Source: Bugula neritina (taxonomy: Eukaryota > Animalia > Bryozoa). Taken from it: a stretch of 64,000 nucleotides of DNA. A program made the translations under genes and the position numbers. A model generated the notes under the pieces. That model was not told the DNA's origin. It ran no database searches and saw only the letters and a list, made by a program, of their open reading frames with translations. Each line of letters starts with the position of its first letter. The first letter of the stretch is position 1. This document shows, piece after piece, positions 7,756 through 40,900 of the stretch. Where the stretch lies: positions 8,797,408 to 8,861,407 of the forward strand of contig OZ037771.1 of NCBI GenBank assembly GCA_964035545.1. Direction: 5' to 3'.

Positions 7756-8163
7756 GACAACACCACGGATTGCCAGAGATACGCACATTTACCTTTATCC
7801 AATCTCAAGATTCAAAAGTAGAAATGAAAACGAGTTTAGATTTTTACCAGGTTCTCAAAAATCGACATGCGAACCTCAAAAAAAATAATGTGTTATCCTG
7901 TGGCGCTATAAATGCACACACTATTCGTTGGCATTTTAAAAGAAAGTTGGAAGACGAATTTAGTGATACGCTACCAGAAGGGTGGGATATTAAAGATTTA
8001 ATCCAAGTTAACACTGATGCTCAATTAGATATAGGATTACATAACATCAACGGACCCCAGTACCAGGATTTAGTTCCTGCTGAAGGATACTATAGATGCT
8101 CGGCATCATCAATAAATGGGAGTCACGTTGCCATATCTGGCACTGTGCATCTTGTAGCTCCAG
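7756..8163 (+). CDS. Ig-superfamily gene exon 2 (Ig domain 1, neuroglian/L1/contactin-like)
   Basis: tgacag|GA...CCAG|gtagtg, phase 1-1; carries the Ig C-W-YxC signature in LSC...IRW...EGYYRCSASSING...AISGTVHL. Confidence 0.8.
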
Positions 8164-8185
8164 GTAGTGTATTATAAACTTTATC

Positions 8186-8530
8186 TTGTAGTTGTACTGT
8201 AGTCGTGTTGTAGTTGTACTGTAGTCGTGTTGTAGTTGTACTGTAGTTGTGTTGTAGTTGTACTGTAGTTGTGTTGTAGTTGTACTGTAGTCGTGTTGTA
8301 GTTGTACTGTAGTTGTGTTGTAGTTGTACTGTAGTTGTGTTCTAGTTGTACTGTAGTTGTGTTCTAGTTGTACTGTAATTGTGTTCTAGTTGTACTGTAG
8401 TTGTGTTGTAGTTGTACTGTAGTTGTGTTCTAGTTGTACTGTAGTTGTGTTGTAGTTGCATTGAGATATATATTGTAGTTGTGTTGTAAATTTATGTTAC
8501 AGTTGTACTGTAGTTGCGTTTTAGTTGTAT
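8186..8530. repeat. 22-bp minisatellite (dimer of 11-mers, TGTAGTTGTAC/TGTAGTYGTGT)
   Basis: Direct tandem repetition just downstream of exon 2. Confidence 0.9.
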
Positions 8531-8927: not shown

Positions 8928-11503
8928 CACAGTTGGTTTAAGGTCATACTTTTCATTTTCTGGCTCTTTGCCAGGTGCTTTATGTTCTATATGAACAATG
9001 TTCCACTGATAGCTCGAACAGGTTGAATGTCACAGGAACAAAAAAAATATAAAAAGATAAAGAAACTTATGTTCTCCAATATACTTTTTTATTTTTTTCA
9101 AAAGCCAATTCATGTTTAAGTTATAGCTTGTTGAAAAACATAGTCCCCCTTCCACATTCTTTTCAATTTATACGCTCCTGACTTGTTATTGTGTCTCAAT
9201 ATGCCTTGTATTTGAGTGCTTGTTAGTCTCGCTTCACTAACTTTGCCTATACTTCACAAGTGCCAGTGCTGCTGGCTCAAAAGCTAAATGTTATAAACTG
9301 TCAGCTAAAACCCAATCTTGTATTCCTAGGTTGGTTGGCCTAAATAAAACAATAGTCAAATCATGATTTCATGTTTTAAAAATTTACTCTATTCTAACCT
9401 GCTGCCTAGCTAGTTCTATTTTTGATGTATAATTACAAAATTTGTGATACATTTTTTTGGCAACCATGTAATTTATAAAATGCAGTAATGGTACTTATAA
9501 TATTATATTATTATCATTATAATATATTATATAGTATTATGTGTGTTTTTATTATCCTGCATAATATCTAATTTATTATTGTTGTTGTGCAAACAAGTGC
9601 AATTAACCTAGTTTTCAAAATGTACCTCTAAATTATCAGAATATCAGTTTAGATATTTTCATGCTTTGTAAGGTAAACCTAAAAAAAGAGGCTGTATTCC
9701 CAAAGTAAAGGGTGTTGAACTATGAACTATATTAGATTAGCCACTCTGCTACCAAGTGCATCAGTATAATATTATATGAATAGCTCTGATGCTTTGTCTC
9801 CGGTGGCTGGCTGCGATATGATAACTTGGCCAACTTCCAAGAGTTTAAAATTGGCGCAATTATTCAAGAGGTTACATACTGCACAGAGCTAGCAGTGATA
9901 GTAACCTTGCTATTGGCAGTACTTATTACAACTGCCAGCATATAAGCTGCATTGTAGAATGCCGTTGGGGCAGGCTAGTAAAACCAAATTCTGCTCTCTA
10001 ATATACCTTAGACAAAATGCAGCAACATAATTTTTAGTTTCAAATTACATTTGCCACCCTTACATGAGCTGTGGGCTTCATAAAGATTCATATGATTAGA
10101 GATTTATGCTATAGGCCCTATCTGTGCTAGTGTATGATGAAAATAACACACCATTGTCAAAGTTAACTTCAAGTATGTTGTTTTCCAGAAACTCAGTAAT
10201 GTCCATTTATCTCTCGCATACAAATACTTATGTAATACCATACAGTTTAAGTTTTATTTTAGAGCACATCTGCAAACTCTACAATAAGAGCTTGCTTTAC
10301 CAGTCTATTTCAGACCTGTTTTTGTAGCTAGTAATACGCAAGCTACTTATTTTTAAACTTTTGGGTTATTTGTTCAAAACCATTAGCTTTGCTAGTAACC
10401 CGAGACTATTGCAACAGTTGACTGCTATCAACATGAATTGACAGCCTAATAATTATAACCCTTTTGCGCGCGAAATATTTATGTAATGATAGTTACTCAT
10501 ATAGGGCGCGTCTTATTAACGATGACTGCGTGGTCTAGAGGTTAGAGGCGTCGGCGAGGAGTTAGTAGGTTATGGTTCAACCCTGTTTTGTCACAATTTT
10601 TTTTTGTAAACTTATGCAAATCCTACGCATGTATAATAAATATGGCTATAATTGTAAAGTTTTTTTTAACTTTTGTTCAACAGTAAGACAACATACATGC
10701 ATAATAATTAGATACTGAACACTGGACTAAACCTTAAATTGATCTTATAGAATACAATGTACTTAAAATAATCATATGTGAATTAGAGAAACTGAAAGTA
10801 CACCTGCTGCTCTATAGACAGACCTTTACTGACAAGACTGCAAAGTGAAGTGATTTAGCTGAAATTAACTCTGCCAAACAAACAAAGAATTATGTTGTGC
10901 TGAGGCATTTTCAATATATTATTGTAACATAGTGAGATGATTCAGCTAAGTGCTAATGTAAAACAGGGAACATTATATTGGCAGAAATCCAATAGACTGC
11001 CAATTTGTGCGAGAGGGTACTATATGTTATTGTGATAGCGCAGAGCGGCAAACGTACTAGGAATGTTATAATTGGTCACAGGAGCGTAGCTAGAACCACC
11101 ATATGAAGAATTTAGAAAATTGCAGTGAAACTTGCAAAATGGTGTATGTTTTTACCAAATTGTGAAGAGCATAAACAGAATTTCAAAAAACAAAGAAAGT
11201 ATATTAGAGAAAACATATCAAGGAATGTCAAGTTTAACTTTTAGACTTTATAAAATGAATCCCCTGTGCTACAGCAGTGGAACATGGAGGGTGTAAAATT
11301 TTACTTATTATGCAACAACTTTCTCAAAAAAATTTTTATTGAAAAATTAAAAAAGTATATGAAAGAGGAATGCAAGAGCTATCTTTTCATGTAAAATTTG
11401 TTAATGTGAGACAAAAACTGTTCGAGCTATCCCCTGGAAACCGTTTATATATAACATAAAGCAGTGCCTGAATCTGGAAAGTAATGACCTTAAACCAACT
11501 GTG
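8928..11503 (+). mobile_element. Non-autonomous DNA transposon with CACAG...CTGTG termini (CMC/EnSpm-like), copy 1
   Basis: TIR CACAGTTGGTTTAAGGTCAT at 8928 and its reverse complement ATGACCTTAAACCAACTGTG ending at 11503; 2-bp TC duplication; no transposase ORF. Superfamily is inferred from termini and TSD length. Confidence 0.8.
10524..10605 (+). other. tRNA-derived Pol III-like unit (A box, B box, oligo-T) inside the DNA transposon
   Basis: TGGTCTAGAGG (A-box-like, 10531), GGTTCAACCC (B-box-like, 10574), T9 at 10597; cloverleaf not intact. Confidence 0.5.
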
Positions 11504-11819: not shown

Positions 11820-12091
11820 TGTAGTGAGGACGTAATACGCGCGTGCCCGCATTCCTTCAGCCTATCCAAGTGCGTCACGTGATAGGCCTTAGTTAGTAGT
11901 AGTTTTGCAAGAGAGAGAGCGTGCTAACTAAGCGAAGATGTAATCTCTAATCTGTGTACGAGCTGTATCTTTTATATAATTAGTAGTAAATAAACGTTGG
12001 AAGCTTTTACCTAAATACTTTATTGGTGTAGATAAATAGACATAATTACAAAGCTAGGAACCCACGCATAGTAGTTACACAAATTACTACA
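11820..12091 (+). repeat. Gypsy-1 5' LTR
   Basis: Direct repeat of 19127-19398 with TG...CA termini. Confidence 0.97.
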
Positions 12092-12092
12092 G

Positions 12093-12110
12093 TGGTGGCA
12101 GCAGTGGGAT
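12093..12110 (+). promoter_or_regulatory. Primer-binding site complementary to tRNA-Leu
   Basis: TGGTGGCAGCAGTGGGAT; near-perfect complement of the animal tRNA-Leu(AAG/UAG) 3' end. Confidence 0.9.
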
Positions 12111-12152
12111 TTCTAGCTACTGTATTAGAACAATGAGAAGTATTAGAACATC

Positions 12153-15100
12153 ATGGACGAGGGAGTAACTGCAATGGAAGGAGGTGAGCAGAACAATATT
12201 ATAGGCCCTCTCGGAGCTAGAGAGGAGGTATATAGGAACATGTTGGAGGTTCCCGTGTTCACAGGCTGCGAGGATATTGAACAATTCGTTCAAGAATTCC
12301 GTGAAACTGCCGCCATTGCAAGATGGCCGCCAAGAGTAACCCTTACAAAATTGCGGATGGCACTGACGGGAGAAGCCAAGCCGTACGGGTGGAAGCCTAG
12401 CATAAACGGGATCATTGCTACACTACGGGCCCGTTTTGGCATGCCCGTTGCCGTCGCCAAGTCCAGACTGCGAGGATTACTCCGCAAGACATGTACACCG
12501 CTTTCTGACCACGCCACTCTGGTGCAGAGACTGGCACGGACCGCGTATAGCGATCTGCCAGAAACACACAGACGGCACTACACATTCGAAGCCTTTGTAC
12601 AGTCTCTCAATTCCTTGGACTTCCACCACCAGTTACAAGCCAAGGGAGTGACCACGATTGAGGCTGCAATCCAAGAGAACAAGGCCTACGCTGGAGCCGA
12701 ACGACTCTATAAGACGGAAGAGGCCACACCCCAGCCCTCTAGGGAGCCAGACCATCCGGTCCGCATAGCTGCCGCGACCACGAAAACCCTCATAGAGACG
12801 GAGATAAGCCACTTGATGACTAGACTGGGAAAATTGGTGGCGACGATAACATACAACCACTCAAGGAAGAGTAAGAGGACGGCAACAAAACCCCCCAGAC
12901 CCATGATGCGACGCTGGGAAAACGGCAATCAGGGACACCGCCACCTGAGTGGCCCACGACTCAAATGGCAGCAGAAACCACAACCTCCCCGGAGACCCCC
13001 AGAGCTCCGCGGACACACACAGAGAGAAAAACGGGGTGGGTGTCGCCAGGAGCCCGTACGGGCCCAGCGACACAACCCCCGTCAATGGCAAACACCTCGC
13101 CGTACCAGCCAACCAGGTCGACCACGAGACCCCTTCTCTCTGCCTCTCACCAACCGCTTCGGTCCGTTACCAATAATGGAACAGACCAGCGAGGCCCCTC
13201 AGGGCATCGGGGAGGATCAGAACACCTCCCCGCAAGGAAACTCTCACCGGCCCCGCAAACCGCGGAACAAACGGGCACAGCCCCGTTCGGCCGAGACCGA
13301 GCACGCTGGGGGGATACGGGTACAACCTCACGGAGGCAGCTACTTCTTGCCAGGGAAGGTGGCCGGTAAAGCTGTCACCTTCCTGTTAGACTCCGGGTGT
13401 ACCACTAATATCCTCAGCCGTCGGGTCTTCGACACCCTCCCTCTCAAGGAGAGGGGAGCCTTAGCTCCCTATACCGGGGAACCGGGCACCCTAGCTGACG
13501 GGTCACGGATTCCTTTCTACGGTATCATAGAATTGGCTGGGCGCGTCCGCGACCAAGCCATTCAGGAAACCTTCATCATCAGCCCACTGGAGGAAGATGC
13601 CATACTAGGGATGCCGTTCTTGAAGAGACACGGGTGCCATATTGACTTTAGCAAGTCAGCCATGCTAATGGGCGGCAAAGAGCTCACCTGTGTCGACAAG
13701 TTCGGTCGTCCTCTAGCGGGAGGTGTGCAGGTAGTACGCAACTGTACTATACCCGGCCGCTCCCGGGCTACCGTTCACTGCAGAGTGAACAATAGCCAAC
13801 TCTCGGGGCTAGGGGTTGTCGAAGGTGCGCACTCTAGAATCCAACTCGCCAGCAGTCTTAACCGGCTGACTGACCGAGGAGAGATCTTGGTGCAGTGTGT
13901 CAACCCCTTCTCCGAAGCGGTACAATTACCGTCAGGATCCATGCTGGGTCGCTTCCACTCCATCCAGGAGGAGGATGTAGGGCCGTCGCTGGGAGCTGCG
14001 ACGGAAGGTCCCCAACAGAGCCCGTCAGTTAGGCGGGGGACCGTCCCATCACACGTCAAAGAGCTATACCAGGCAGCGTGTAACGGCTGCACGGGCAACG
14101 TGGAACGCCAGACTATGGCTCAGTTGCTACGTGATTATAGCGACGTGTTCAGCAGTGGGGACCATGACGTCGGCCTGACCACGGTCGTCCGTCATGAGAT
14201 ACCGCTGGCTGCAGGGACTACCCCTATCCGGCAACCCACCAGGAGGCTGGGACCCGAGAAGGAAAAGGAGGTAAGCCAACAAGTCCGGGATCTTTTGGAC
14301 CGCGGCCTCATCGAGCCAGCGCATAGCGCGTGGAGTTCACCGGTCGTTCTGGTCCGAAAGAAAGACGGCAGTTGGCGGTTCTGTGTGGATTATCGCAAGC
14401 TCAATAGCGTGACCATACAGGACGCCTACCCCTTACCCAGGATCGACGAATCTCTGGACGCCTTAGCCGGCAGCAAGTACTTCAGTACGCTAGACTTGTT
14501 GAGCGGCTATTGGCAGGTCCCCCTCAGCCCAGACGCCCAGGAGAAGGCGGCGTTCATCACGCGGGACGGCTTATGGAAGTGGAAAGTCCTCCCCTTCGGA
14601 CTGACTTCCGCCCCCGCCACGTTCCAGCGGCTCATGGAACAGGTCCTCAGTGGACTCCACTGGAAGACACTGCTAGTGTACCTCGACGACGTCATCGTGA
14701 TCTCCCCAGACTTTCAGACGCACGTCAGCCGTCTGCGGGAGGTCTTCGATCGACTCCGAGGCGCCAATCTGAAGCTCAAACCCTCCAAGTGCGCTCTCTT
14801 GCAGCCAGAGGTGAAGTACCTGGGGCACATCGTCGGCCGCCACGGCGTGGCGACGGATCCTGAAAAGGTACGAGCTATAGAAGATTGGGTAACCCCCCAG
14901 GATTTGACCGGGCTACGGGCTTTCCTGGGGCTGGTAGGGTATTACAGGCAATACATACCAGACTTTGCGGGGGTAGCGCAGCCGTTAAACCGGCTCACCG
15001 CAAAGGGGGTGACCTGGCAGTGGACTCCCGTCGAACAGAGAGCGTTCGACTGCCTCAAAGGCCGCCTGCTGGAGGCCCCTATCCTGGCTTATCCAGACCC

Positions 15101-17612
15101 TGCCCTGGAGTACATCCTCGATACTGACGCCAGTGACCAAAATGTCGGCGCTGTGCTGTCCCAGGTGCAGGAGGGCCGCGAAGTAGTCGTGGCCTACTAC
15201 AGTAAGTCTCTCTCGCCCACTGAACGAAATTACTGCACTACCCGAAAGGAATTGCTGGCAGTAATCAAGTCGGTGAAGCATTTCAGACCTTATCTATACG
15301 GCAGGAAGTTCCGCTTGCGGACCGACCACGCCTCCTTGATTTGGTTATGTAAGAGAGCAGAACCGTCCAGCCAGGTCGCCCGATGGCTCGAGGTCCTGGC
15401 CGAGTTCTCTTACCGGATCGAACACCGACCCGGTAAGAAACACGGCAATGCTGATGGACTGAGCCGGCGACCGGACGAGGGGTGTAAACAGTGCCTCAAC
15501 ATCGAGAAGAGGGACGGAGGTCCCCCAAAATCCGAGTTGAGAGCACTGAACCACTCTGAAACGGAGTATGACTGGGACCAGGGTCAACTCCTACAGAAGG
15601 CCCCTACGCCCCCGGAGGCTATCCAACGCCTCCGTGCCAATCCTGTCTTGGCTGATAACGTTAGGGAGCTACGAAGACTCCAGGAGGACCTCCCTGGAGT
15701 AGTAGCCGACGTATATCGTGCCAAAAAGGAGGGGCGACGACCCAGTGAAGAACAACTGCGGCAGGGATGCACCGAGTTACGGTTGTACTGCCAACGTTGG
15801 GATTCCCTGCGGATCGGGCCAGATGGTCTGCTGACCATCACAGTGGCTGCTCACAACAAACAACACGGCAGAAAAAGGGTGATCTGCCCAGCCGCCATAC
15901 GCCGGGAGTTAGTATGGGACACCCACAAGCAAGCCCACGCCGGGGTGAGCAGGGTTCTCTCCAAGTTACAACTCCGGTGGTACTGGCCCGGCATGGAGCG
16001 TGAGGTGCGGCGTAGAGTCAGACAATGCGAAATCTGCCAGGCCAGCAAGCATGGCCGTCTCCCTGGTGAAGCGGGACGGCGTCGGCTATATGCTGGAAGG
16101 CCATGGCAGGTGGTAGCTATCGACCTAGTCGGACCCATGCCCGTCACCCCCAGGGGAAACAGCTGGATCCTAGTATTAACCGACCACTTTACACGGTGGG
16201 CGGATGCCCTGGCTATTCCAGATGCGTCCGCCCCCACAGTGGCCAGGGTGCTGGACCAAAATGTATTCTGCTATCTCGGACTACCTGAGCAAATACATTC
16301 GGACCAGGGGGCTCAATTCCAGTCCCAACTGTTGAGTGACCTCTGCCGCTTCTGGGGAGTAAACCAAAGCAGGACCACCCCGTACCATCCTCAGGGCAAC
16401 GGGGTGGTGGAACGCAACAATCGCATGTTGGGCGATGCACTGCGCAGCCTGCTCCTCGGCCGGGGTCAGGAGGAGTGGGATACGGTACTACCGCAAGTCA
16501 TGCGGGCCTACCGTAGCACACCACATACCAGTACGGGGGAAACCCCTAACCTCCTGATGCTCGGTCGAGAGACGCGAGTGCCTGACCACCTCGCATACCA
16601 CATCCCAGAGCAGGACTATACCATCCACGAGTATGCCAGTAAATTGATAGAGGACCTGAGGGCCGCACACGAAATACTGCGGGCAAAGCAGTGGCAGGTA
16701 CGGCGAGAGGACTCTCAGGAACCACCCCTCTATCGAACTGGGGACTGGGTGTGGATGATCAACTACCGTAGGCGTCGAGGACAAGCGGCTAAGCTCCAGC
16801 CTAAGTTTGTGGGACCCTACGTAGTAGTTGAGGCTATGCCCAATCATACGTACAAGTTGGAGCGATCTGGACAGGTCTCTGTCCAGAACGAAACCCGCTT
16901 GAAACCGTATTGGGCTAGCCCAGGAGCAGCAGGAGCAGCCCCCCCGTTGTTGGAGCCCAGGAGGCAGACAGTAACGCGTGGGCGGCAACGGCATGGACCA
17001 GAATACGAAGTGGTTGTGCCGCGGGGAGAGGACTTAGTGAGGCAGAAAACGCCACTCCCACCAACGGAAGTGCGCCCACCGCCCCCAGTACCAAGTCTAC
17101 CCCCACCACTTCCGGTTCCGCATCCGCGTCCGGAAGTGCAAAACCCCCCCGTGGGAGGGGCTCCATCTGGAGACAACAGCAGAGAGGGGAACACCACCAC
17201 CAACGGCGGGCCAGAAACACCACAGGTGGAGCAAAATAGCCCACCAGTGAGTACGCCGCCCCAACCAACAGCTATAACTCCCTCTCCAGCTGATGCGTCA
17301 CCTCCCCTGGAACGGGGACAGCATACCAGACAACCCCCAGCATACCTTAAAGATTTCATTTGTGACCGTGTTACAAACGGCAGTTATGAAAGTCTAGCTG
17401 GGTGCCGTACGGAAAGACTGGCAACAAAGCGTGGGAGTTGTGAACACCACGGAAATCTCAACTTTTGCGAAGGCGGAGTAGTAAACAAAACTACTACGCC
17501 CGAGGCAAATAGTTCCAACCGTGCGCAACAACCACGCTGTCCAGTCTTTTCGTACGCTGACATTGTCAAGGGAAGACGCATTCAAACTCAATCCACGGAC
17601 ATCCAAGCTTGA
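12153..17612 (+). CDS. Gag-Pol polyprotein, single ORF of 1819 aa (Gag, protease, RT, RNase H, integrase)
   Basis: FLLDSG protease; RFCVDYRKLN, LPFGL and YLDD in RT; LDTDAS...NADGLS RNase H; H..AH...CEIC, DLVGP, HSDQG, VERNN integrase; GPY motif. Confidence 0.97.
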   Translation: MDEGVTAMEGGEQNNIIGPLGAREEVYRNMLEVPVFTGCEDIEQFVQEFRETAAIARWPPRVTLTKLRMALTGEAKPYGWKPSINGIIATLRARFGMPVAVAKSRLRGLLRKTCTPLSDHATLVQRLARTAYSDLPETHRRHYTFEAFVQSLNSLDFHHQLQAKGVTTIEAAIQENKAYAGAERLYKTEEATPQPSREPDHPVRIAAATTKTLIETEISHLMTRLGKLVATITYNHSRKSKRTATKPPRPMMRRWENGNQGHRHLSGPRLKWQQKPQPPRRPPELRGHTQREKRGGCRQEPVRAQRHNPRQWQTPRRTSQPGRPRDPFSLPLTNRFGPLPIMEQTSEAPQGIGEDQNTSPQGNSHRPRKPRNKRAQPRSAETEHAGGIRVQPHGGSYFLPGKVAGKAVTFLLDSGCTTNILSRRVFDTLPLKERGALAPYTGEPGTLADGSRIPFYGIIELAGRVRDQAIQETFIISPLEEDAILGMPFLKRHGCHIDFSKSAMLMGGKELTCVDKFGRPLAGGVQVVRNCTIPGRSRATVHCRVNNSQLSGLGVVEGAHSRIQLASSLNRLTDRGEILVQCVNPFSEAVQLPSGSMLGRFHSIQEEDVGPSLGAATEGPQQSPSVRRGTVPSHVKELYQAACNGCTGNVERQTMAQLLRDYSDVFSSGDHDVGLTTVVRHEIPLAAGTTPIRQPTRRLGPEKEKEVSQQVRDLLDRGLIEPAHSAWSSPVVLVRKKDGSWRFCVDYRKLNSVTIQDAYPLPRIDESLDALAGSKYFSTLDLLSGYWQVPLSPDAQEKAAFITRDGLWKWKVLPFGLTSAPATFQRLMEQVLSGLHWKTLLVYLDDVIVISPDFQTHVSRLREVFDRLRGANLKLKPSKCALLQPEVKYLGHIVGRHGVATDPEKVRAIEDWVTPQDLTGLRAFLGLVGYYRQYIPDFAGVAQPLNRLTAKGVTWQWTPVEQRAFDCLKGRLLEAPILAYPDPALEYILDTDASDQNVGAVLSQVQEGREVVVAYYSKSLSPTERNYCTTRKELLAVIKSVKHFRPYLYGRKFRLRTDHASLIWLCKRAEPSSQVARWLEVLAEFSYRIEHRPGKKHGNADGLSRRPDEGCKQCLNIEKRDGGPPKSELRALNHSETEYDWDQGQLLQKAPTPPEAIQRLRANPVLADNVRELRRLQEDLPGVVADVYRAKKEGRRPSEEQLRQGCTELRLYCQRWDSLRIGPDGLLTITVAAHNKQHGRKRVICPAAIRRELVWDTHKQAHAGVSRVLSKLQLRWYWPGMEREVRRRVRQCEICQASKHGRLPGEAGRRRLYAGRPWQVVAIDLVGPMPVTPRGNSWILVLTDHFTRWADALAIPDASAPTVARVLDQNVFCYLGLPEQIHSDQGAQFQSQLLSDLCRFWGVNQSRTTPYHPQGNGVVERNNRMLGDALRSLLLGRGQEEWDTVLPQVMRAYRSTPHTSTGETPNLLMLGRETRVPDHLAYHIPEQDYTIHEYASKLIEDLRAAHEILRAKQWQVRREDSQEPPLYRTGDWVWMINYRRRRGQAAKLQPKFVGPYVVVEAMPNHTYKLERSGQVSVQNETRLKPYWASPGAAGAAPPLLEPRRQTVTRGRQRHGPEYEVVVPRGEDLVRQKTPLPPTEVRPPPPVPSLPPPLPVPHPRPEVQNPPVGGAPSGDNSREGNTTTNGGPETPQVEQNSPPVSTPPQPTAITPSPADASPPLERGQHTRQPPAYLKDFICDRVTNGSYESLAGCRTERLATKRGSCEHHGNLNFCEGGVVNKTTTPEANSSNRAQQPRCPVFSYADIVKGRRIQTQSTDIQA

Positions 17613-17621
17613 ACGCTGAGT

Positions 17622-18767
17622 ATGATTACAAATACCGGGTTCTCAGGTAAGCTTGCTCTGAGCTAACATTTCCACTCATGGAAACCAGTCTACCATCAGT
17701 CAGTTCTGATTTAATCGCCTTGATTGAATCACAACTACTGGGGACTGAGTCCTACGTGAAAGGCGACGAGAACATAAAGATGGCCGACGATCTACTAGAT
17801 CTGGAGCTTGACACTATGTCTCTCTGTCAGTCTACACGACATGACTCAGTCCCGCGAGTGCTATCTGAAAAGATGTATGACTCTCAGACTAGTAACAGTC
17901 GGTTGTCATCAGAATTATGGTGTAAAGATCATATCCGATCTAACAGTAATTCTGCTCTTTTAGATACCGCTCTCTCTCCTCTATCTGGTGACATGCCGTC
18001 ACTAGAAATGGCTTGGAACGAGGAACCCGTTCCCACTACTCTTCCGGAGGCACTCCTACAACAATCATGCTGGGTTACAACAGATACAGAAACACTGATA
18101 CGAGAGCACAAAGGAGATGACCAATGCACCACCTGCCGTTTATGCCAGCTTCATTTCACTACCCCACGAAGACTCCGAGTTCATATTCCTCAACATTACT
18201 TCACCACCTTTTGTCCCTGTGGTGAATACAGTTACCACAGGGACTACATCCTCCGTCACCAACGAACCATGGGATGCCATATTGGACACCTATTCGAAGT
18301 CGACGAACCCTCCTTTCCACAATTCCTTAATCTCATCCGACCGTTCATATCAGACCCAATTCGATATGAACGGCTGCGCCAGGAGTTCCCCGCACCCAGG
18401 ACCATCACACAGGGACCCTGCCCTAAACCACCCGGATATAGGAAACCCCGCATATCCCATTCCTCACCCCCCGCACGCACAGTGCCTCGCCCCGACTCTA
18501 TACCAAGAGTCGTGTTACGACGCATCGATATACCACAGCGATGGCGTCCCTCCCCCCCTGTCTCCCCCAAGGCCGTCTCGTAAGCGGCGTTGGCCATCTT
18601 CATCCCCCAATCGACACTCTGCCCCCGCCAGGAATCTAGGCGAGGCAGAAGAGCGGATACGAGAATTAGAGAAAGAGGTGCAAAGACTGACACCGAGAAT
18701 CTCCGCCGCCGCATCAGAACTCCGGGCCCTCTCTGCCTCTGTAGCCCGAATGAAAGGAAGTGCTTGA
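17622..18767 (+). CDS. Spliced accessory gene of Gypsy-1: join 17622-17646,17964-18583; coiled-coil tail continues to 18767 in the +1 frame
   Basis: ATG micro-exon MITNTGFS then CAG|GTAAG; branch-like CTAAC and TCTGCTCTTTTAG| acceptor; in frame with CRLC-x12-HIPQH and CPC-x12-H-x5-C; the same structure occurs in two other copies. Confidence 0.8.
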
Positions 18768-19115
18768 AGGTGATGTCCCTCCTTTCCTATCCGTGATGGT
18801 ACAGCAGGTGGTGCCCCAGTACAGACCCTTCTCACGCTAGTGCTCACAGACAATTACTCAGTGTAACAATATAGTAACCTACCAGTATACAACTCTAACT
18901 CTACAAACTATTCCCTTATAGTGCCTCCCGCCGGTGCCATTGTACATTTACTGTTATATTTTTTTTATGTATGTACATGTTTCTTACTACTGTACATAGC
19001 CATGTTTTTTTCTTTGTGTGCCACACGCTCTCTCAGTTTTTATATATATATAGTTTTATAACATTTTATGTTTGCATTATCTAATCTGTGTTATCAGAAA
19101 GTAGGGCTTTCTGCT

Positions 19116-19126
19116 GGAGGGGGCGG
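19116..19126 (+). promoter_or_regulatory. Polypurine tract of Gypsy-1
   Basis: GGAGGGGGCGG directly before the 3' LTR. Confidence 0.9.
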
Positions 19127-19398
19127 TGTAGTGAGGACGTAATACGCGCGTCCCCGCATTCCTTCAGCCTATCCAAGTGCGTCACGTGATAGGCCTTAGT
19201 TAGTAGTAGTTTTGCAAGAGAGAGAGCGTGCTAACTAAGCGAAGATGTAATCTCTAATCTGTGTACGAGCTGTATCTTTTATATAATTAGTAGTAAATAA
19301 ACGTTGGAAGCTTTTACCTAAATACTTTATTGGTGTAGATAAATAGACATAATTACAAAGCTAGGAACCCACGCATAGTAGTTACACAAATTACTACA
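19127..19398 (+). repeat. Gypsy-1 3' LTR
   Basis: Direct repeat of 11820-12091, followed by the ATAT TSD. Confidence 0.97.
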
Positions 19399-19402
19399 AT
19401 AT

Positions 19403-19632
19403 TCAGGCTTCAGCTTTTGGACAGGATGATAACAAAGACTTTTCCCTGTATATAAAGAGGCGAGCTCACAGAGTAAACTCAGTTTACTACCACTGGAGCT
19501 CACCGGATAAAGACCACTTTCACTCGCTACCTATATTACAATAAATATTTTTACACTCAAGCTCACTACCTCATCTTCTATACTGGAGTTATGCTTTCCA
19601 CTTAATTGCATTCTACTCACAAAACTACTACA
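19403..19632 (+). mobile_element. Solo LTR A, 3' part
   Basis: TATATAAA (19449), TCAGT 30 nt later, AATAAA; ends CTACTACA followed by ATAC, matching ATAC before 11620. Confidence 0.75.
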
Positions 19633-19659
19633 ATACTACAAAACTTTTTTTGCATTGCC

Positions 19660-23461: not shown

Positions 23462-23649
23462 GTACAATATTTTGCCTATGTTTATTTTTCTAATCAGAGC
23501 GTCAATTGGTGTATTGTGATAATTCGGTGGATTTGGAAACCTCACCAACTCTACCTGTAGAGGCTGGGTGATAGTTGGTTAGGAGATGGTCGAAGTGGTG
23601 CCAGCTCTAATCAGCTGCATAAGCTGCGGGGGGGGGGGGGGGGGGGAGG

Positions 23650-26353
23650 GGGTATCATTTTAATAAGTTTAAAATCCAAACTTGACGTTCCTTGATATGT
23701 TTTCTCGAATATACTTTTTCTTCTTTTTGAAATTATGTTTATGCCCTTCACAATTTGGTCAAAACTTACAACATTTTACAAGTTTCATTGCAATTATCTA
23801 GACTTTTCATATGATAATTTTGGATATGCTCCTGTGACTAATTATAACTTCTCTAGTACATTTGCCACTTTGCGCCATCACATTAACAAAGTACCCTCTC
23901 GTGCCTATTGGCAGTCTATTGGCATTCTTCCAATATAATGTTCCCTATTTTACATTAGCGCTTGTTAGCATCTTCTCACTATGTATATAATATATCTATT
24001 GAAAATGCTTCAGCACAACATAATTATTGGTTTGTTTGGCAGAGTTAATTTCAGCTAAATTTTCCACCCACCTCACTTTACAGTCTTGTCAGCAAGTGTC
24101 TGTTTATAGTGCAGCAGGTGTATTTTCAGTTTCTCTAATGCATATATATTTTAAGAACATTATTTTCCATGAAATCAATTTAGGCCCTTTCATAGAGCAA
24201 AAAAAGGTGAAGCATTCCTTAGACATGTCAAAAATTGTTTTCTACAAAATTGTATAAAGGTAATTTCAACCTAAAGGGTAATGTGTTTTCCTGAGCAACA
24301 CCAATATCTGCCTGCAGGCATTTCACTATTACGAGAAGGAATAGGCTGCTAGCAGCTGCCTACAATCTTGATAATTGAGTGCAGTAATTGAAAAGCTTCA
24401 ATAACCTAAGCACTCTCATTTAGTTTCGGGCGCAGGTTAAGAATAGCACAAGAATGTAGCTTCTTCTATAAAAACCCAGGCTTTTCTTTATTTCTCTATT
24501 ACTGCACTTCTCTTGATATTGACTTATTAGGCCTAACTAAGGTTTAGCCCAAAGTTCAGTATCTAGTTGGTACGCATGTATGTTGTCTAACTGTTGAATT
24601 AAAAGTGTAAAAAATCCTACAGCTGTAGCCATATTTACCCATCATCATGATTACACATATGAATGTGTAGAATTTGCATAAGCTAGTGGAAAAAAATCTT
24701 TGCTGGGGCAAGAGGTGGAACCTTACTCTACAGTCTACAGTGTGCTAGCCGCACCCCTTACCTTTAGACCACACAAGCTTTGCCAATAGTGAAGCATTAT
24801 ATGAGTAACTATCATTATATAAATATCTGGAGGCACAGATGGGTATACAATTATTATTAGTTAGGCTGTCAATTAATGTTGACTGGCAGTAGATAGCTGC
24901 TGGTGATCTTGAATAACTAACTCAAAAGTTGAAAAATAAGTAGCCTGCATATTATTAGCTACAAAATTAGGTCTGAAATAGACCTTGTCTAGACAGTGTT
25001 AGAGTTTGCAGTTGTGCTCCAAAATATAAATTAAACTGTATGCTATTACATAAGCTTATGCATGCAAATATGTTATGACAATACTAAGTTTGAGGAAAGC
25101 AACATAGCCTACTTGAAGTAAACTTTGACAATAGTGTGTTATTTTCTTCGAATACAGTAGCACGCATAGGGCTTATACTCTAAAGCATAACTCTCTAATC
25201 ATATGAATCTTTATGAAGTTCACAGCTCATGTAAAGGTGACAATGTAATTTGAAACTAAAAATTCTGTTGCTGCATTGTGTTTAAGGTATATTATGGGGA
25301 AAAATTTGGTTTTGGTAGCCTACCCCAACGGCATTCCACAATGCAGCTTATAGGCTAGCCAGTTGTAATAAGTAATTATAATAGCAAGGTTACTATTATG
25401 GCTAGCTCTGTACAGTATGTAACCTCTTGAATAATTTCGCCACTTTTAAACTATTGGAAGTTTGCCAAGTTATCATATTGCAGCCAGCCACCGGAGACAA
25501 AGCATTGCAGCTATCCATATATCATACTGATGCACTTGGTAGCAGACTGGCTAATCAAGTAATCTAATTTAGTTCAATGCCCTTTACTTTGGGAAACAGC
25601 TTCTTTTTTTAGATTTACCTAACAAACCATGAAAATATCTCAACTAATATTTTAATAATTCAGAGGTACATTTTTAAAACTGAATTAATTGCGCTTGTTT
25701 GCACAACAACAATAATAAAATATATATTATGAAAAGTAATAAAAAACACATAATACGATATAGTATATGATATAATAATATAATATTACAGGTACCATTA
25801 TTGCATTTTATAACTCGGATGGTTGCCAAAGAAATCTATTACACCAATGCTATAATTACATCAAAAATTTTGATAAGAAGCAGGTTGAAATAGAATAGAT
25901 TCCTAAAACATGAAATCATGATTTGACAAGTGTTTTATATAGGCTAACCAACCTAGGAATACAAGATTGGGTTTTAGCTGGCAGGCCCTAGCATGTAGCT
26001 TTTGAGCCAGCAGCACTGGAACTTGTAATGTATAAGCAAAGTTAGTGAAGCGAGATTAACGAGCACTCAAATACAGTATATTGAGATACAATACAAGTCA
26101 GGGGCGTATAAATTAGAAAGAATGTGGAAGGAGGACTATGTTTTTCAACAAGCTATAACTTGAAGATTAATTGGCTTTTGAAAAAAAATTGAAAAAGTAT
26201 ATTGGAGAACATAAGTTTCTTTATTTCTTCATATTTTTTTTGTTGGCGTGATATTCAACCTGTTTGAGCTATCAGTGGAACATTGTTCATATAGAGCGTA
26301 AAGCACATAGCAAAGAGCCAAAAACTGAAAAACAAGACCTTGAACTAATTGTG
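23650..26353 (-). mobile_element. CACA-terminal non-autonomous DNA transposon, copy 2 (inverted, one end lost)
   Basis: Reverse complement of about 8928-11260 over more than 2 kb; retains a degenerate TIR ending GTG at 26353; truncated at the G-run near 23630-23650. Confidence 0.85.
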
Positions 26354-30119: not shown

Positions 30120-30598
30120 TGTAGTAACTTTGTGAGTTGAATGAAACTCAAGTGCTGAACATAGCTCTTTATCAAAGAGAACAAGATAGAATGTATCCTT
30201 CAGTAGTAGCAATCTGTATTGTAGCGTAATAGAGTGGTCTTTAACAGGCAAGCTCCAGTGGTAGACTGACTACACTGGAGACTCGCCTGCTTTTATATAC
30301 ACAAAACAAAAGGATACATAAACAATAGCATTTTTTGTTGTCCAAAAATTGGAGGTCCGAAATGCTAATTTCCGGCAACAAAATTTAGTATAAAATTGTT
30401 ACATAACTTCAAATGCGTATTCAGTGTAATTACATTATGCTGGAAACTTTAACAATAATCACAATACTTAGGCATTAGAAAGCTACCTCGCTTAGTTATA
30501 ATTCCAGCATTTAAAACGATATGCAGCAAGTAATTACAATACTGATGCACGCAGTTACTAAAACTTTCCAGAACAATAGGGGATGAAAATCCATTACA
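30120..30598 (-). mobile_element. Solo LTR B inserted in the 3' UTR of Gypsy-3
   Basis: Minus strand TGTAATGGATTTT...TTACTACA, homologous to the Gypsy-4 LTR start; near-matching 4-bp flanks ATAA/ATAG; carries the TATA/TCAGT module. Confidence 0.7.
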
Positions 30599-30602
30599 TT
30601 AT

Positions 30603-33600
30603 TGTTGTAGTTTCGTGAATTACAACTACTTGTGGGTATTATTGTGTGATTGACTAGGTAGATGGGACCGAACTTAGATTTCCAGGCACAGAGTTCCTTA
30701 TTTATATGACCTACAGAGTCTTTCAGCTGGTTCAGCCCAGCCGTCACAGCTGGGGTGCCAATTGTCTGAAACCGACTTGCAGTCTTCTGAGCCTGTACTT
30801 CATACTATGCATAGCATTTATATGTCAGGGGGTGGAGGACGACACGGATGACGTCTTATCAGCCTCATGTTCTCCTCGCTTTCTATGTGACCGTGGACTT
30901 GGACGAGCATGATGATGTAGCGATAATCTTTGTGAGAAGATGGCCAAGATTAGTGCTTTGCAGACGAGGGGGCAAATAACATAAAAAAATCCTGAAAGCT
31001 GTATACATCAATCGTAAAGACAGCTCCCATATAACAGTCAGCTCGCAGCTGGTGAGCATTGATGACATGGGGTTAGCTATTATACTCCCCGCAAGGACAA
31101 AATGCTAAAAGATAGTGAGCGTCCACATGCGCCTTCAGTGACCTAATTGTTGCTAATGGCTCTTGGCATAGTTGGCATACGGTACTACCACTAGGGCCCC
31201 AGGCGGCCTCAATCTTTTGGGCCGTGGCTGGTGATACTTATCGCCATCGCCTGCAGAGTAATTTTGGAAACTCATCGTCTTTACACTCCATGAGGGGAGA
31301 AGGAGGTTTAGTTGGTAAGCCGTCCCCGTGCCAGGTGGAGCTCATAGCAATAGCAGGTTGAATAGCGCCTGAAAGAGCAGAAATAAGACTAGATCAAACT
31401 AGACCTATACACATAATCCTGGTGAAGCACGACCTTATAATAGCCTGGAAGTCACAACCCTCCCGGTAGAACACTCGCGAGACTAGTACTAGTAAGGTAG
31501 TCTGACAGAGAACAAGACAAGAACAAGACCTTCTATCATTTCATATTTTCACCACCCTTACTCACTAGTATTATCTCCTGTTAGAATATACTAACAGGAT
31601 GAGTCCAGTGACTGAGCTGACGTCAGAGTTGTTTCTGTACTAGAAGAATATTTTGTAAACTTACCCTGAAACCCGGTATTGCGTGGCATACTCGAATATT
31701 TGAGGATACGTATAATAGAAAACTACAAGTACGTCTACCCTTGACTGCATCAGCCTATGAAAAGATTGAGCAGCATGTTTGTTGTGTGTGACGGAAGCAT
31801 TTAACAGTTGGCAGATTATTTCTGCCTACTGCTCCTCCCTCACAAAAGTAACTTGTTCTAGTGATAGCACAACTCCTACGCTGAGTGGGACAACTCCCTG
31901 CGGAGCTTACCGTTTGACTAGTAAATCTGCCATTTTGCACACAGTTGCAGACAAAGTCTCGCAGGTAGGGCGGAGGTTGTCTAGAGCGTTGACAATTCTC
32001 TAAAAACAGCAAAGCCTCCACGGATGGACTCGCAAGTTCCACAGGTGAAAGATCCTGCTCCGCTCTTCCTCCATCTCCAAGAAAGAACATTCTTCTATTA
32101 CCGAGGTTCCCACTTCCAGACCGGGGTTAGGTTCCGGAAGTGACGGTACTAGGGCTGGAACAGTAGGCGGCAGACTCACTTCCGGTAGAGGAGGTGGTCG
32201 CTCGTCTGTTACCAGCTCCCGGTTCTACAGCACTACCACCTCATACTCGGGTCCATGCCGTTGCCGCCTGCACGTTACTGCCTGCCTCCTAGGCTTGAGC
32301 AACCGGGGAACTTTTTCTACCGCATTGGGGCTAGCCCAATACGGCTTCAAGCAAGCCTCATTTTGGATTGACACCTGTCCTGAGCACTCAACGTTGTACG
32401 TATGACTGAGCATAGTCTCGACTATCAAGTAGGGCCTCACGACCTTGGGCTGTAACTTAGCCACTTGTCTACAATGCCTGCGGTAGTTGGCCATCCAGAC
32501 CCAGTCCCCCACTTGATAGAGGGGAGGCTCCTCAAAGTCCTCAGTCTGCACCTGCCATTACTTCTCGCGAAGCATTTTGTGTGCGGTCCTCATGCACTCT
32601 ACCAACTCCCCCACATACTCGTGTACAGAGTTATCCTGGTCAAGAACATTGTAGGATAGGTGGTCAGAAACTCGAGTCTCTCGACCGAGCATCAAGAAAT
32701 TGGGGTTTCACCAGTACTAGTGTGTGGCATGCTGCGGTAAGCCCGCATGACTTGCGAGAGCACCGTATTCAATTCCTTTTGACCGCGGCTAAGGAACAGG
32801 CTCCGGAGCGCATCACCCAACATGCGGTTGTTACGCTCTATCACCCCGTTACCTTGTGGATGGTACGGGGTAGTCTTGCTCTGATTCACCTCCCAGAGGC
32901 AACAGAGGTTGCTTATCAGTTGAGACTGAAGCTGAACACCTTGGTCCAAATGTATCTGCCCAGGGAGACCAAAGTAACAAAATACATGTTGGTCTAGCAC
33001 ACGGGCCCCAGTCGAAGCCTACGCGTCTGAAATAGCCAGAACGTTGGCCCATCTTGTAAACTGTTCCGTGAGCACCAAGATCCAGCTGTTGCCTCAGGGT
33101 GTTGTGGGCATGGGGCTGACCAGATTGACAGCAAGCACTTGCCACGGCTGGCCAGCATATAACCTCCTCTGTCTCGATTTACCAGGGAAACGGTCATACT
33201 TAATAGCCAGGCAGATCTTGTCCTGTCTAACTTTGAGCCGCACATTATGCCCCATCCTTGGCCAGTACCACCGGAGTGACAACTTGGGGAACTTTTCTGG
33301 GCTCTTAGATGAGCCTTTTTGTGAGTGTCCCAAATTAACTCCCGGTGGATAGTGGTAGGGCAGACCACCCTCTCCCTCTCTGGGTGTCTACCATTGGCGG
33401 CCAATGTAATGGTTAGAAGTCCATCTTCGTTGACCTGTAAAGAGTCACAGCGTTGGCAGAATAGTTGTACCTCGGCCCATCCTTGCCTCAGTTGCTTCTC
33501 ACTGGGCTGCCTCCCTTTTTTTTGGCTTGGTATACGCTGGCTACCACTCCAGGAAGGGTTTTCTGAAGTTTACTAAGCTCCGAGACGTTATCAGCTACAA

Positions 33601-36968: not shown

Positions 36969-37918
36969 TGTGATAGTTTTGTGGGTTATGAGTGCAACTA
37001 GTGCTTTACATACTTGCTACAAAAAACAAGGCGAGAAAAAAGGTAGAAGATAAGGTAGCTTTATTGTAGTCGAATGATCCAGTAGTCCGTATCCAGCGAG
37101 CTCCAGTAGTAGACTGAATCTACACTGAAACTCGCTGGCTTTTATATACACGCAGGACAAAGACATTCCTTTGTTGCCGAGATCGAAGGCCCGAAATGCC
37201 GAATATCGGCATTTCAGGAATCCGAAATGCCGAATTGGCATCTCGGCACTTCGGTAGTCCGATATGCCGAAAATCGGCATATCGGTGTTTCGGCGGACCG
37301 AAGCGCCGATGTCGGCAACAAAGGACACACACACACAACATAAATCTACCACACACACCCCCCATCAGAAAGCATGCCTTCCGATAAAGAGGCGTACACA
37401 AACACAAAAACGTCAATCACACAATATAAACCATATGACACGACATGTAACACACATTTAACAAACAACACGAAAAAAAAACGAATATATGGTAGCCATA
37501 CAGTGATAAATAGATAGAAGGAAAGAAAAAATTGTGCACACATGAGTAGAAAACAGAGCAACGAACAGGTACATAACACTACGTGAAAGAATTCACACAC
37601 ATGAATTAGAAGGGAAAAAGAAGAAAGAAACAAAAAAACAATCAAGAAAACAGAATACAAAAATACAAACAGTTACATGCACCCAGGTGCTCATCGGCGG
37701 TCCCCACATCGGCTTTGTTCCAGGCAGCTCACACGTCTCCTTAGTTGCCCCAACTCCTCCTCGTATCTGCGGAGCCGCCTGCGTAGGTGTTGCACCTCTT
37801 CCTCCAATTGGGCCTTTTATACTTTTCATTTTCATTCGAGCCACACATATACCATACTTATTAATATAACTATATTACTGCAGGTCATCAAACTCTGCTT
37901 TGTAGACAGCAGAGATAT
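36969..37918 (-). mobile_element. Gypsy-5: 3' LTR (37353-36969), PPT and 3' internal remnant with a leucine-zipper-like frame
   Basis: CTTTCTGATGGGGGGTGTG|TGTGGTAG...CTATCACA|ATAT; the same CTTTCTG-PPT context as Gypsy-1 and Gypsy-2. Confidence 0.75.
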
Positions 37919-40900
37919 TGTTATAATTTCCAGAATTGTGGGTTGGTGTGCAATCAAGTGACTGTTATTTAGTATACTAGAGAAACTTCGCCAGTGTAAT
38001 CCGAGTTAATACTAATAAATTTTATACACAATGATGCATCACAAAAACTACAGTTATACAAATACATTCAGCTAATTGATACGGTCTATACAGTTCACCA
38101 GCCTAAACTCAACTAACTGAAACACGGGAAGCTATCACTACTAAAACTGTCAGTCATTCCGATTGGTTGTCTGCTGTCCCGGGTCATCCCAATGACCCCG
38201 TGCTGCACTCATGGGGGAAATAACATTTCCCCGTTATTACGCTGGTAGCTCTATGAGCCACAACACCGCCCCTACCAGCAGAAAGCCCTCTTTCTGATAC
38301 AAAAAAAATTACAATCAGCACACATAATGTCAGTAGAGCATAACATAAAAAAAGACAGGTATACACAACGACAGAAATAATCATTATAACAGATACGGCA
38401 TATACAATTGGTTAGCTACGGAGAGAGAAGTAGCACTAGCTGTGGTAGTGGCCAAGGAAGTTGAGCTGTTGAGCATTTACATGATCACAGTGTTGTAGTT
38501 AAGCACTTCCAAGAGGGTAAGGCTTACAAATCATTCCAGGAAGGAGAACCAGAGTCATGGCTTGGAGAGCCGGTGTTTGGCTTGACGGGCACGTAGCTTC
38601 CGTTTGATTCTGCCTACGAAGCCTTTCAATTGATCGAGTCCTGTCGTGGTGTTTAATAGATCTGGGGCTAGTTGGGTGAAATCGGCCTGTAGCCGAAGGA
38701 GCCGCTCTTCTACAGTAGCTAGGCGAGTATGATCTGGAAATGGGGTCGAGAACTTACGAGCGGGAGGTGCTATCTCTTTTTCCGCATTAGGGTAGGTGAG
38801 TTTTTCAGGGGTATATATAATCTGGGGTCTGTCCGATATCATCGATGATTGTTGTCGAGCATATTTCAGCACATGCTGGAACCCGGAAATCAAAACAGCC
38901 AGCACCATCGCTTTCTTCACCAAAGGCAGTATTAGTGGTAAAAATTCTGGGTATAGATCAGGGTCCACGACGTAGTTTTCTTCCGGGAAGCATTCAGCTG
39001 CTCGATGTCTAATGATTGGGTAGGGATAGACGTCGTGGTGTCCGTTTGGGCAGAATGTCAGTAGGAAATGGGCATCCACATTTAGTCTCAGTGAGCGGTG
39101 AGATGGGCTATCTTCATAACAAATTTGGCACTGCGTACTCCCTTTGGGTCCCCATGCAACCTCTATTTTCCTCTCCGTCTCTATTGACACCCACCGCCAG
39201 CGGCGGCGCAGTGGCCCTGGTAGTCCGCCATTGGTATTCTCCTCGTGGTGTGGTGCGGGGAATGCTCGGTTCCGTACCCTGGTTGTAGCGGGTCGAGTGT
39301 AACCTGAAAAAGTTCAACAGCGCTAGTGAAATACACTGTAGTGTCGCCGGCCTTAAACAGCCTGACAACTTTTCGTTTGGTTAACACTCGCAGAGATTAT
39401 TGTTAGTGAGTAGTTGGAAGAGAACACACACTGCAGTGAGATTGTGAAATCTCTGAGTCAATTTGTGTTTCTAACACTGTAGTTCACTAGCCTTTCTTCA
39501 GCTCAATTGACTCAGACGAGACGGAGCTGAGTGATGCAATCTAGTTTCCATACCAAGAACATAGTTAACTCACCCCCAGATCCGGTATTGTATGACATAC
39601 TGAATGTTTGAGAATGGTTTCTGTTTCTGTTTCCCCGGCAGTGATTATTTCTTCCTGTTCTCCGAATAGAGCCCTCCCTCCGTGGGGGTTGGCACTTCCG
39701 GAACTGGCTCGGTTTCTGGAAGTGAAGGTATCAAACTTGGCGTCGGAGGCGGCGGGCGCACTTCTGTGGATGGAAGTGGTTGCTCATCTCGTACCAAGTT
39801 TTCTTCCCGCGGGATGACTACTTCATACTCGGGTCCATGCCGCCGTCGCCCACGCGTTGTCGTCTGCCTCCTAAGCTCCAACAACGGGGAGGGGCTTTTT
39901 CCACTGCCTCTGGGCTAACCCAATACGGCTTCAAGCGAGTCTTATTTTGGATGGACACTTGTCCTGAGCGCTCGATCTTGTAGGTATGGTTGGGCATGGC
40001 CTCAACTACCACGTAGGGTCCCACGAACTCAGGCTGTAATTTAGCCGCCTGTACAAGACGCCTACGATAATTGACCATTCACACCCAGTCTCCTGTCTGA
40101 CAGAGGGGTGGCTTTTCGGAGTCCTTGCGCCACACCTGCCACTGCTTCTCTCACAGAATTCCGTGTGCGACCCTCATTCACTCTACTAGTTCACTGGCAT
40201 ACTCGTGAACTGAGCTGTCTTGCTTTGGACTGTGGTAGGTAAGATGGTCAGATACCCGAGTCTCTCTTCCGAGCATCAGGAAGTTTGGGGTTTCACCAGT
40301 ACTGGTGTGTGGGGTGCTGCGGTATGCACGCATGACTTGAGGCAACACCGTATCCCATTCCTTCTGACTGCATCCGAGGAGTAGATTCCGGAGCGCATCA
40401 GCTAGCATCCGGTTATTGCGCTCCACCACCCCGTTACCTTGGGGATTGTACGGAGTGGTCCTGCTCTGATTTACTCCCCAGAGGTGGCAAAGGTTGCTCA
40501 TCAGTTGAGACTGGAACTGAGCGCCTTGGTCAGAATGTATCTATTCGGGGAGGCCAAAGTAACAGAATACATGTTGGTCCAGCACCCTGGCCACTGTCGC
40601 AGCTGACACATCTGGGATCGCCAGAGCGTCTGTCCACCTGGTGAAGTGGTCGGTTAATGCTAAGATCAAACTGTTGCCTCTGGGGGTTAGGAGCATGGGT
40701 CAGCTACTACTTGCCACTGCCTTCCAGCATATAACCTTCACCGTCCCGCATCACCAGGGAGACAGACAGCCATGCTTGCTGGCCTGGCAGATTTCACACT
40801 GCTTCACTGAGTCAGACATCACGCTGCATTTTGGGCCAATACCACCGGAGTTGAAATTTGAAGATCACTCTCTGTACTCCTGCGTAAGCCTGTTTGTGAG

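Follow-up and report, generated by a model that had tools for sequence, protein, structure and literature searches.

The retrotransposon Gypsy-1 of the bryozoan Bugula neritina carries, between pol and its 3' LTR, a conserved accessory gene for a protein with a predicted compact double-zinc domain, a basic linker and a predicted C-terminal coiled coil. From the sequence and structural models we tentatively propose, as a reading that is quite possibly correct, that the product is an element-encoded nuclear regulator that would bind the DNA of its own element and keep that element transcribed, by transactivation or local anti-silencing. Accessory regulators are a known kind of protein; this one belongs to no named family tested.

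Gypsy-1 and its accessory gene

In the window, the 64,000-nucleotide stretch of contig OZ037771.1 that was analysed, Gypsy-1 and the three copies of the accessory gene comprise the following features.

11820..12091, + strand: 5' LTR of Gypsy-1 with TG...CA ends, matching the 3' LTR at 99.6% identity; a target-site duplication of 4 bp, ATAT, lies just before it
12093..12110, + strand: primer-binding site, near-identical to those of Gypsy-3 and Gypsy-4, and presumably of the tRNA-Leu type
12147..17612, + strand: gag-pol, a single open frame of 1821 codons (PR-RT-RH-IN-SH3) with its first ATG at 12153
12184..12189, + strand: candidate phase-1 splice donor in early gag, which may supply an alternative first exon for the accessory mRNA
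17622..17646, + strand: candidate micro-exon, putatively an ATG plus 25 nt and then a GTRAG donor in phase 1; length and phase are equal in copies 2 and 3
17647..17963, + strand: candidate 317-nt intron with a pyrimidine tract and AG end, conserved in subfamily A, not protein-like and predicted to be structured
17964..18583, + strand: accessory gene (copy 1), first frame, with an acidic lead-in, the double-zinc domain and a Pro/Arg linker
18035..18400, + strand: compact double-zinc domain, 122 aa (AlphaFold2 pLDDT 96.0, pTM 0.86)
18134..18196, + strand: finger 1, C-x2-C-x12-H-x3-H, ligands kept in 71-73 of 74-75 subfamily-A rows
18212..18277, + strand: finger 2, C-P-C-x12-H-x5-C (CxC type), ligands kept in 76/76, 72/75, 70/74 and 69/69 rows
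18560..18570, + strand: approximate place of the frameshift that breaks copy 1; the length differs here in six contigs of DNA run X1
18576..18593, + strand: basic patch SRKRRW in the second frame, a candidate nuclear localisation signal
18636..18767, + strand: heptad-repeat tail with a central Pro in the second frame, then a stop; 13/13 a/d positions are hydrophobic
19127..19398, + strand: 3' LTR of Gypsy-1, with the polypurine tract just before it
30690..31689, - strand: decayed copy 2 of the accessory gene (candidate micro-exon 31689-31665, domain 31249-30968 and a remnant of the coil)
38555..39598, - strand: copy 3, a member of subfamily B, with a candidate micro-exon at 39598-39574 and a candidate second exon at 39303-38555

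Gypsy-1 (11820-19398) is a young element with an LTR identity of 99.6%, and its assignment to the Ty3/Gypsy LTR retrotransposons is borne out by the LTR pair, the target-site duplication, the primer-binding site and polypurine tract, and the order PR-RT-RH-IN. The preliminary description had treated 17964-18767 as one gene frame. In copy 1 two ORFs share this stretch: 17651-18583 encodes the fingers, and 18099-18767 encodes the basic patch together with the coil. The elements that it listed, namely the LP..L..W motif, both fingers, the F.VD...F..F block, the Pro/Ser/Arg linker, SRKRRW and the heptad tail, are all found in copy 1. The frames split here are joined in relatives, with fingers and coil in one frame in 18/78 subfamily-A hits and 51/76 subfamily-B hits. 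As relatives hold a single frame and the six X1 contigs differ in length at this place, the frameshift near 18560-18570 looks specific to copy 1.

The accessory gene is also found in two older, minus-strand relatives, as copy 2 at about 30.7-31.7 kb and as copy 3 at 38555-39598. The likeness of the three domains is far beyond chance, with HMM scores of 87-137 bits and only 3 bits for the sole other match in the window. The fingers, previously taken to be conserved across the three copies, are intact in copy 1 only: the second exon of copy 3 is open through domain and coil with two zinc ligands substituted (Asn for the first His, and CPN-x12-H-x4-C), and copy 2 has stops and frameshifts. The domains of subfamilies A and B are about 29% identical (35/122), and blastn found no match shared between the LTRs of the two. 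The basic patch noted ahead of the coil is a trait of subfamily A (15/18 full-length members); in B it precedes the coil in only 2/71, and a basic run is placed after the coil in 63/71.

A further element in the window, Gypsy-4 (59848-63040, + strand), has a pol 72% identical to that of Gypsy-1 over 770 aa, and an HMM search of the window found no copy of the zinc domain in it, so the accessory gene is dispensable in a close lineage. Its gag-pol has a large internal deletion and its early-gag donor is in phase 0. Gypsy-4 is the natural comparison lineage for the accessory gene.

Several other features of the window were recorded. The gag nucleocapsid knuckle of Gypsy-1 (about 12915-12965, + strand) lacks its three cysteines in an element that is otherwise young and open, and the gag of Gypsy-3 (within 43250-44700, - strand) has a canonical CCHC knuckle at the matching place. 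Pol RNA (13405-17525) is unusually structured, with z < -3 in 7/13 windows of 317 nt (20 shuffles each). An LTR-like repeat bearing TATA and polyA signals recurs at 19447-19518, 19586-19635, 30233-30301, 37081-37150 and 59664-59716 (74-79% over 50-75 nt); it adjoins the right side of Gypsy-1 and the end of copy 2 and lies near Gypsy-4, which suggests nested insertion into related LTRs. Two inverted copies of a repeat of about 2.4 kb (8928-11264 and 23649-26353), about 77-94% alike, flank Gypsy-1 at a distance, and tandem arrays with units of 15, 8 and 11/22 nt occupy 1-742, 2205-2385 and 8137-8510. Other reverse-transcriptase-like remnants and long ORFs, all on the minus strand (45239-48321, 35975-36709 and 54668-57733), are distant from Gypsy-1, at 25-33% identity.

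Candidate splice sites and the predicted zinc domain

In all three copies the candidate micro-exon lies just past the pol stop and is followed by a pyrimidine-tract AG acceptor in the matching phase 1. The early-gag donor is also in phase 1 in Gypsy-1 and in Gypsy-3 (44619), and in phase 0 in Gypsy-4, which has no accessory gene. Since GTRAG occurs 14 times in the element, the splice-site match gives modest support only; the accessory gene is likely to be expressed from spliced RNA. Reading 17651-17963 as a coding N-terminal extension is disfavoured by neutral-looking replacements and by its variants, 6/14 of which are synonymous (p 0.21). The frame is open to its start in 21 subfamily-A rows, compared with 57 rows covering position 110; one deep X1 contig has five single-base indels in it, and it is closed in copies 2 and 3. 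Subfamily A may nonetheless have a long unspliced isoform.

AlphaFold2 modelled the 122 residues of the domain as a compact unit with a pLDDT of 96 and a pTM of 0.86, and in the model of a full-length natural relative, P0032, the domain is accompanied by a disordered linker and one long C-terminal helix. Finger 1 is of the classical C2H2 type, with C-x2-C-x12-H-x3-H spacing and a beta-beta-alpha fold, and is joined by a 5-residue hydrophobic linker to finger 2, which is of the CxC type. No classical C2H2 array with TGEKP-type linkers was found at the Pfam cut-off. Among 209 near-complete domains a relaxed finger-1 pattern is present in 189 and CxC-x12-H in 192. The H-x5-C ending that had been given for finger 2 is true of copy 1, but across the near subfamilies the spacing from the His to the last ligand ranges from 3 to 5; that ligand is Cys in 159/209 domains and His alone in 31/209.

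The domain reaches the cut-off of no Pfam family, PF13894 matching below threshold in 49/95 members. Profile searches returned the fingers of SALL3 (E 5e-6) and HIC2 (E 9e-6), both over finger 1 only, and the Atlas feature matches were to unnamed clusters or generic C2H2 sets. Foldseek comparison of the protein models with PDB and BFVD, one of the checks that had been suggested, gave nothing at E <= 0.001, and a full-length structure search (VIA) was filled by generic coiled coils. A domain-only search of 48,161 chains gave none with Z >= 5, including for the N- and C-terminal helices that wrap the fingers, an absence that is no proof of a new fold. Residues 30-80 of the model do superpose on tandem C2H2 pairs solved on DNA, the matches including Kaiso (5vmu; Z 3.5, rmsd 2.8 over 57 residues) and ZBTB20 (9kh2; Z 3.4, rmsd 2.4 over 50 residues), with CTCF and SALL4 as further structural neighbours of the finger pair. 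Positions on the recognition helices are basic and conserved, and in finger 2 of the distant members Arg is found at +1 in 63/87 and Asp/Glu at +2 in 77/87. The helices differ between the subfamilies, being TPRRLRV and HRDYILR in A and SHRALRL and YPYPVIV in B.

The claim that the gene is conserved under protein-level constraint is upheld by the retention of the ligands, the conservative replacements in the domain and the mostly synonymous variants in domain and coil. In subfamily A the eight zinc ligands are near-invariant, from 69/69 to 76/76 rows at best to 70/74 at worst. Common replacements in the domain have a mean BLOSUM score of +0.21 (95% CI -0.18 to 0.62), compared with an analytical neutral value of -0.57; for the linker the CI of -0.70 to 0.14 just excludes the neutral -0.78, and for the coil the mean of +0.04 has a CI (-0.40 to 0.51) that overlaps the neutral -0.35. 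In the best-supported 40 of 222 rows of run X1, 8/9 variants in domain and coil are synonymous, with about 0.3 expected (p 0.0004), as are 18/37 in gag-pol. These replacement and variant measures are a rough proxy for dN/dS, with living and dead copies mixed.

Both of the heptad tails that had been quoted are present, with hydrophobic residues at 13/13 and 12/13 a/d positions (shuffle p <0.0002 and 0.0002); that of copy 1 spans 18636-18764. Prediction of a coil homodimer scored 0.03 against a mark of 0.32, which is evidence neither for nor against dimerisation. A bZIP assignment was rejected, as in A a Ser/Pro-rich stretch of about 14 residues lies between SRKRRW and the coil, and in B the basic run follows the coil. 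The stated absence of a transmembrane segment agrees with top Kyte-Doolittle 19-mer values of 0.42-1.51 in copy 1 and four intact relatives; the maximum of 2.19 in copy 3 is a Lys-containing helix inside the folded domain. With its zinc-finger fold and low hydropathy maxima, the protein is not an env or fusogen, as had been argued.

Range of the domain and host-annotated copies

A profile built from 47 sequences matched 303 clusters at 50% identity (E <= 0.001) among 1.84 billion representatives, and the analysis covered the best 150 of these 303. Species names were obtained for 5/30 clusters looked up, two from Watersipora subatra and three from Bugula neritina, all bryozoan. A search for longer proteins among 4270 candidates of 474-2000 aa found none, but was insensitive, missing P0155 (596 aa), and is uninformative outside bryozoans. 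A search of metagenome contigs returned a single locus (L001), which was discarded because its match, of 24 residues, is put down to chance and the contig is unrelated and looks bacterial.

In P0311 (1460 aa) RNase H, integrase, SH3 and the zinc domain share one frame, with about 500 low-complexity residues between the integrase SH3 and the zinc domain. P0303, P0279 and P0256 also have integrase-tail sequence, and in P0303 the domain is in frame behind integrase and/or SH3. From its in-frame position in P0311 and P0303, the domain is an old part of this Gypsy clade and is sometimes fused to pol. Being old, diverse and linked to pol in distant lineages, and reaching no Pfam cut-off, it is not a recently captured fragment of an ordinary host C2H2 protein, one of the findings that the preliminary description had named as fatal to its proposal.

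The domain also occurs in bryozoan proteins annotated as host genes (XP_067940963/4, XP_067944745, KAF6040922/3 and KAF6037488), some of which have host-like traits: annotated isoforms, tandem paralogues, duplicated domains and an N-terminal region common to two genera. This region is shared by Watersipora P0227 and Bugula P0292 (E 7e-20 over 291 columns). An unrooted domain tree was made by a quick method from 84 rows and 100 columns, without most of the subfamily A/B rows and the near-duplicates. On it the domains from host-annotated proteins branch among element-linked ones at three or more separate points, and one of them, P0298, lies inside a clade with 97% support that also contains copies 1 and 3 of the window. 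The tree is poorly resolved, with 41/81 branches open, and no direction of transfer is claimed. Repeated domestication of the domain by the host is plausible from these sequences, and some host-annotated copies may be mis-annotated elements.

Two further observations concern these proteins. The N-terminal region before the zinc domain in P0227, P0291 and P0292 has no Pfam match, and KAF6040922 and KAF6040923 are neighbouring genes. P0296 and P0298 (KAF6037488) have a near-identical N-terminal stretch and different copies of the domain, a pattern that would result if a single first exon of the host could be joined to different domain exons.

Possible functions of the accessory protein

The proposed DNA-binding regulator would be made by splicing onto the acceptor at 17963, from the micro-exon or the early-gag donor, and would enter the nucleus by means of its basic patch. 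There the protein is predicted to oligomerise through the C-terminal coiled coil; the two fingers would read about 6 bp each, and oligomerisation would double them and give specificity. The acidic N-terminal stretch may recruit host co-activators, and the element to whose DNA the protein was bound would stay transcribed. We favour a DNA-binding regulator for the geometry of the finger pair, the basic helix residues that switch together with unrelated LTRs, and the acidic N-terminal regions. In proposing a nuclear regulator of the element itself this agrees with the preliminary description, which had named a transactivator, an RNA-export factor or an anti-silencing protein. A net-acidic stretch precedes the domain in 49/55 distant members and follows it in only 7/55; an acidic region ahead of the domain is the layout of a transcription factor. 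The difference between the recognition helices of A and B, whose LTRs are unrelated, is as expected if each lineage had its own targets. Against this, the structural similarity is low (best Z 3.5) and would be expected of any tandem beta-beta-alpha pair, the acidic lead-in of the window subfamilies is short if the intron is spliced out, and a retained, conserved and possibly structured intron fits RNA export at least equally. C2H2-type fingers bind RNA and proteins too.

The main rival is an export factor of the Rev or CERV kind, in which the spliced product would bind unspliced RNA, perhaps at the 317-nt intron directly ahead of its own exon, oligomerise and license nuclear export of the genomic RNA. 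It seems to us a serious but rather doubtful explanation. The genomic RNA must keep its consensus-like donors and acceptor, all in phase 1, and none of the 5 joints listed for X1 is a precise intron loss. Conservation in subfamily A is higher in the intron than in the zinc domain (minor-residue fractions of 0.17 and 0.22), but the replacements within the intron appear neutral (-0.50 vs -0.38). The intron of copy 1 folds at a z of -5.15, and 12/14 listed variants are compatible with the fold, compared with 0.56 expected (p 0.02). Comparable folding was seen, however, in two of 23 control windows from coding sequence of the element (z -4.75 and -5.26), and the corresponding stretches in copies 2 and 3 gave no significant fold (z -0.02 and -1.53). 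The 14 variants include no compensatory pair, and Rfam gave 0 matches over 17300-19400. The tested precedent is CERV of the C. elegans Ty3/Gypsy element Cer1, which in the available text of PMC10309623 is a spliced, Cys-rich protein with a zipper and KRKK that is needed for gRNA export, and the distant members are in frame with pol as in Cer1. The finger arrangement here is instead that of DNA-bound pairs, and the CERV domains, a helix hairpin, a ring-forming M domain and a G-protein-like domain, are absent from our models, which have one zinc domain and one long helix.

The integrase sequence in P0311, P0303, P0279 and P0256 recalls another possibility, that the domain originated at the C-terminal end of the polyprotein, as an add-on comparable to a chromodomain or GP(Y/F) extension, and acts either as a chromatin tether that guides the integration complex or as an adaptor that binds a host silencing factor. 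The right flank of Gypsy-1 does resemble the 3' end of copy 2 (79% over 75 nt), but in the three copies of the window's clade a stop, micro-exon and intron separate the domain from pol, the low-complexity stretch of about 500 residues intervenes after SH3 even in P0311, and a coil and basic patch are atypical add-ons to integrase, so that we regard this as unlikely. Less probable still is a captured host transcription-factor module, kept as a passenger or put to use as a dominant-negative decoy for a zinc-finger repressor of the host. Its occurrence in host-annotated proteins, with the N-terminal region common to P0227 and P0292, would suit capture, as would the spacing of finger 2, which resembles that of ASCIZ and BIRD/IDD fingers; such fingers do appear, below the naming bar, in the Atlas structure rows. 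Neither family (PF24759/PF24761 and PF22995/PF23115) is among the best 25 of 68 families for 95 members. Purifying selection and retention over many element lineages speak against a passenger, and the host-annotated domains are scattered among element-linked ones in at least three places, P0298 being in the clade of the window copies.

Extra genes other than env are already known in LTR retrotransposons. CERV is described in the available text of PMC10309623 as a 517-aa protein that combines a C4-type loop with an H domain, a ring-forming M domain and a G-protein-like domain, and as having no homologues outside nematodes; compared by description, the accessory protein is shorter (about 230-360 aa), pairs a C2H2 finger with a CxC..H..C/H finger and carries a C-terminal coil. 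Splicing of the kind seen for CERV and Rev would use the conserved candidate phase-1 donors and acceptor of the three copies. The aORF-3R genes of plants and fungi (Grande gene23, RIRE2, Retand and Boty brtn) are antisense in the available text of PMC7264820, and membership among them was rejected, as the accessory gene is on the same strand as gag-pol in all three copies; it also differs in being from an animal and in its C2H2-type fingers. The non-env ORF3s of bdelloid rotifer LTR elements are sense third ORFs of an invertebrate, typically from spliced messages and with a coiled-coil class; the classes given are env-like, GDSL, DEDDy, TM and CC, and neither 'zinc finger' nor 'finger' appears in the main text (PMC5408684). 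A zinc-finger ORF of this kind is likewise unmentioned in the available text of PMC13524379, on bryozoan genomes, and of PMC13269885, and no description of the domain family appeared in the openly accessible article texts that were searched.

The finger pair superposes on those of Kaiso, ZBTB20, CTCF and SALL4 with an rmsd of 2.4-2.8 over 50-57 residues, but compared with tandem C2H2 modules the protein has two fingers only, no TGEKP linker and a finger 2 of C-x-C-x12-H-x(3-5)-C/H, and its fingers form part of a 120-residue domain that has additional helices at both ends. Tat, Tax, Tas and Rev are self-encoded regulators of complex retroviruses made from spliced messages. The role proposed here is like theirs by analogy only, with no detectable relation in sequence or fold (BFVD, no E <= 0.001).

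In the literature searched, CERV is the sole extra protein of an animal element whose regulatory function has been tested. The present domain family is large, old and unannotated, with 303 clusters, a confident model and pol-fused, split and host-annotated forms, and in its two subfamilies the predicted recognition helices differ together with the LTRs. It would be tempting, though we hold it as a speculative and fairly doubtful extension, to see here an independent circuit in the style of complex retroviruses, in which a sequence-specific zinc-finger transcription factor, from a new domain family, recognises and co-evolves with its own LTR and bryozoan hosts have repeatedly domesticated that factor. 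The system makes testable how a retrotransposon may activate itself or escape silencing in an animal germline, and whether hosts recruit such regulators. If the factor is indeed self-encoded and LTR-specific, the usual picture, in which the zinc fingers of the host silence transposons, would be inverted.
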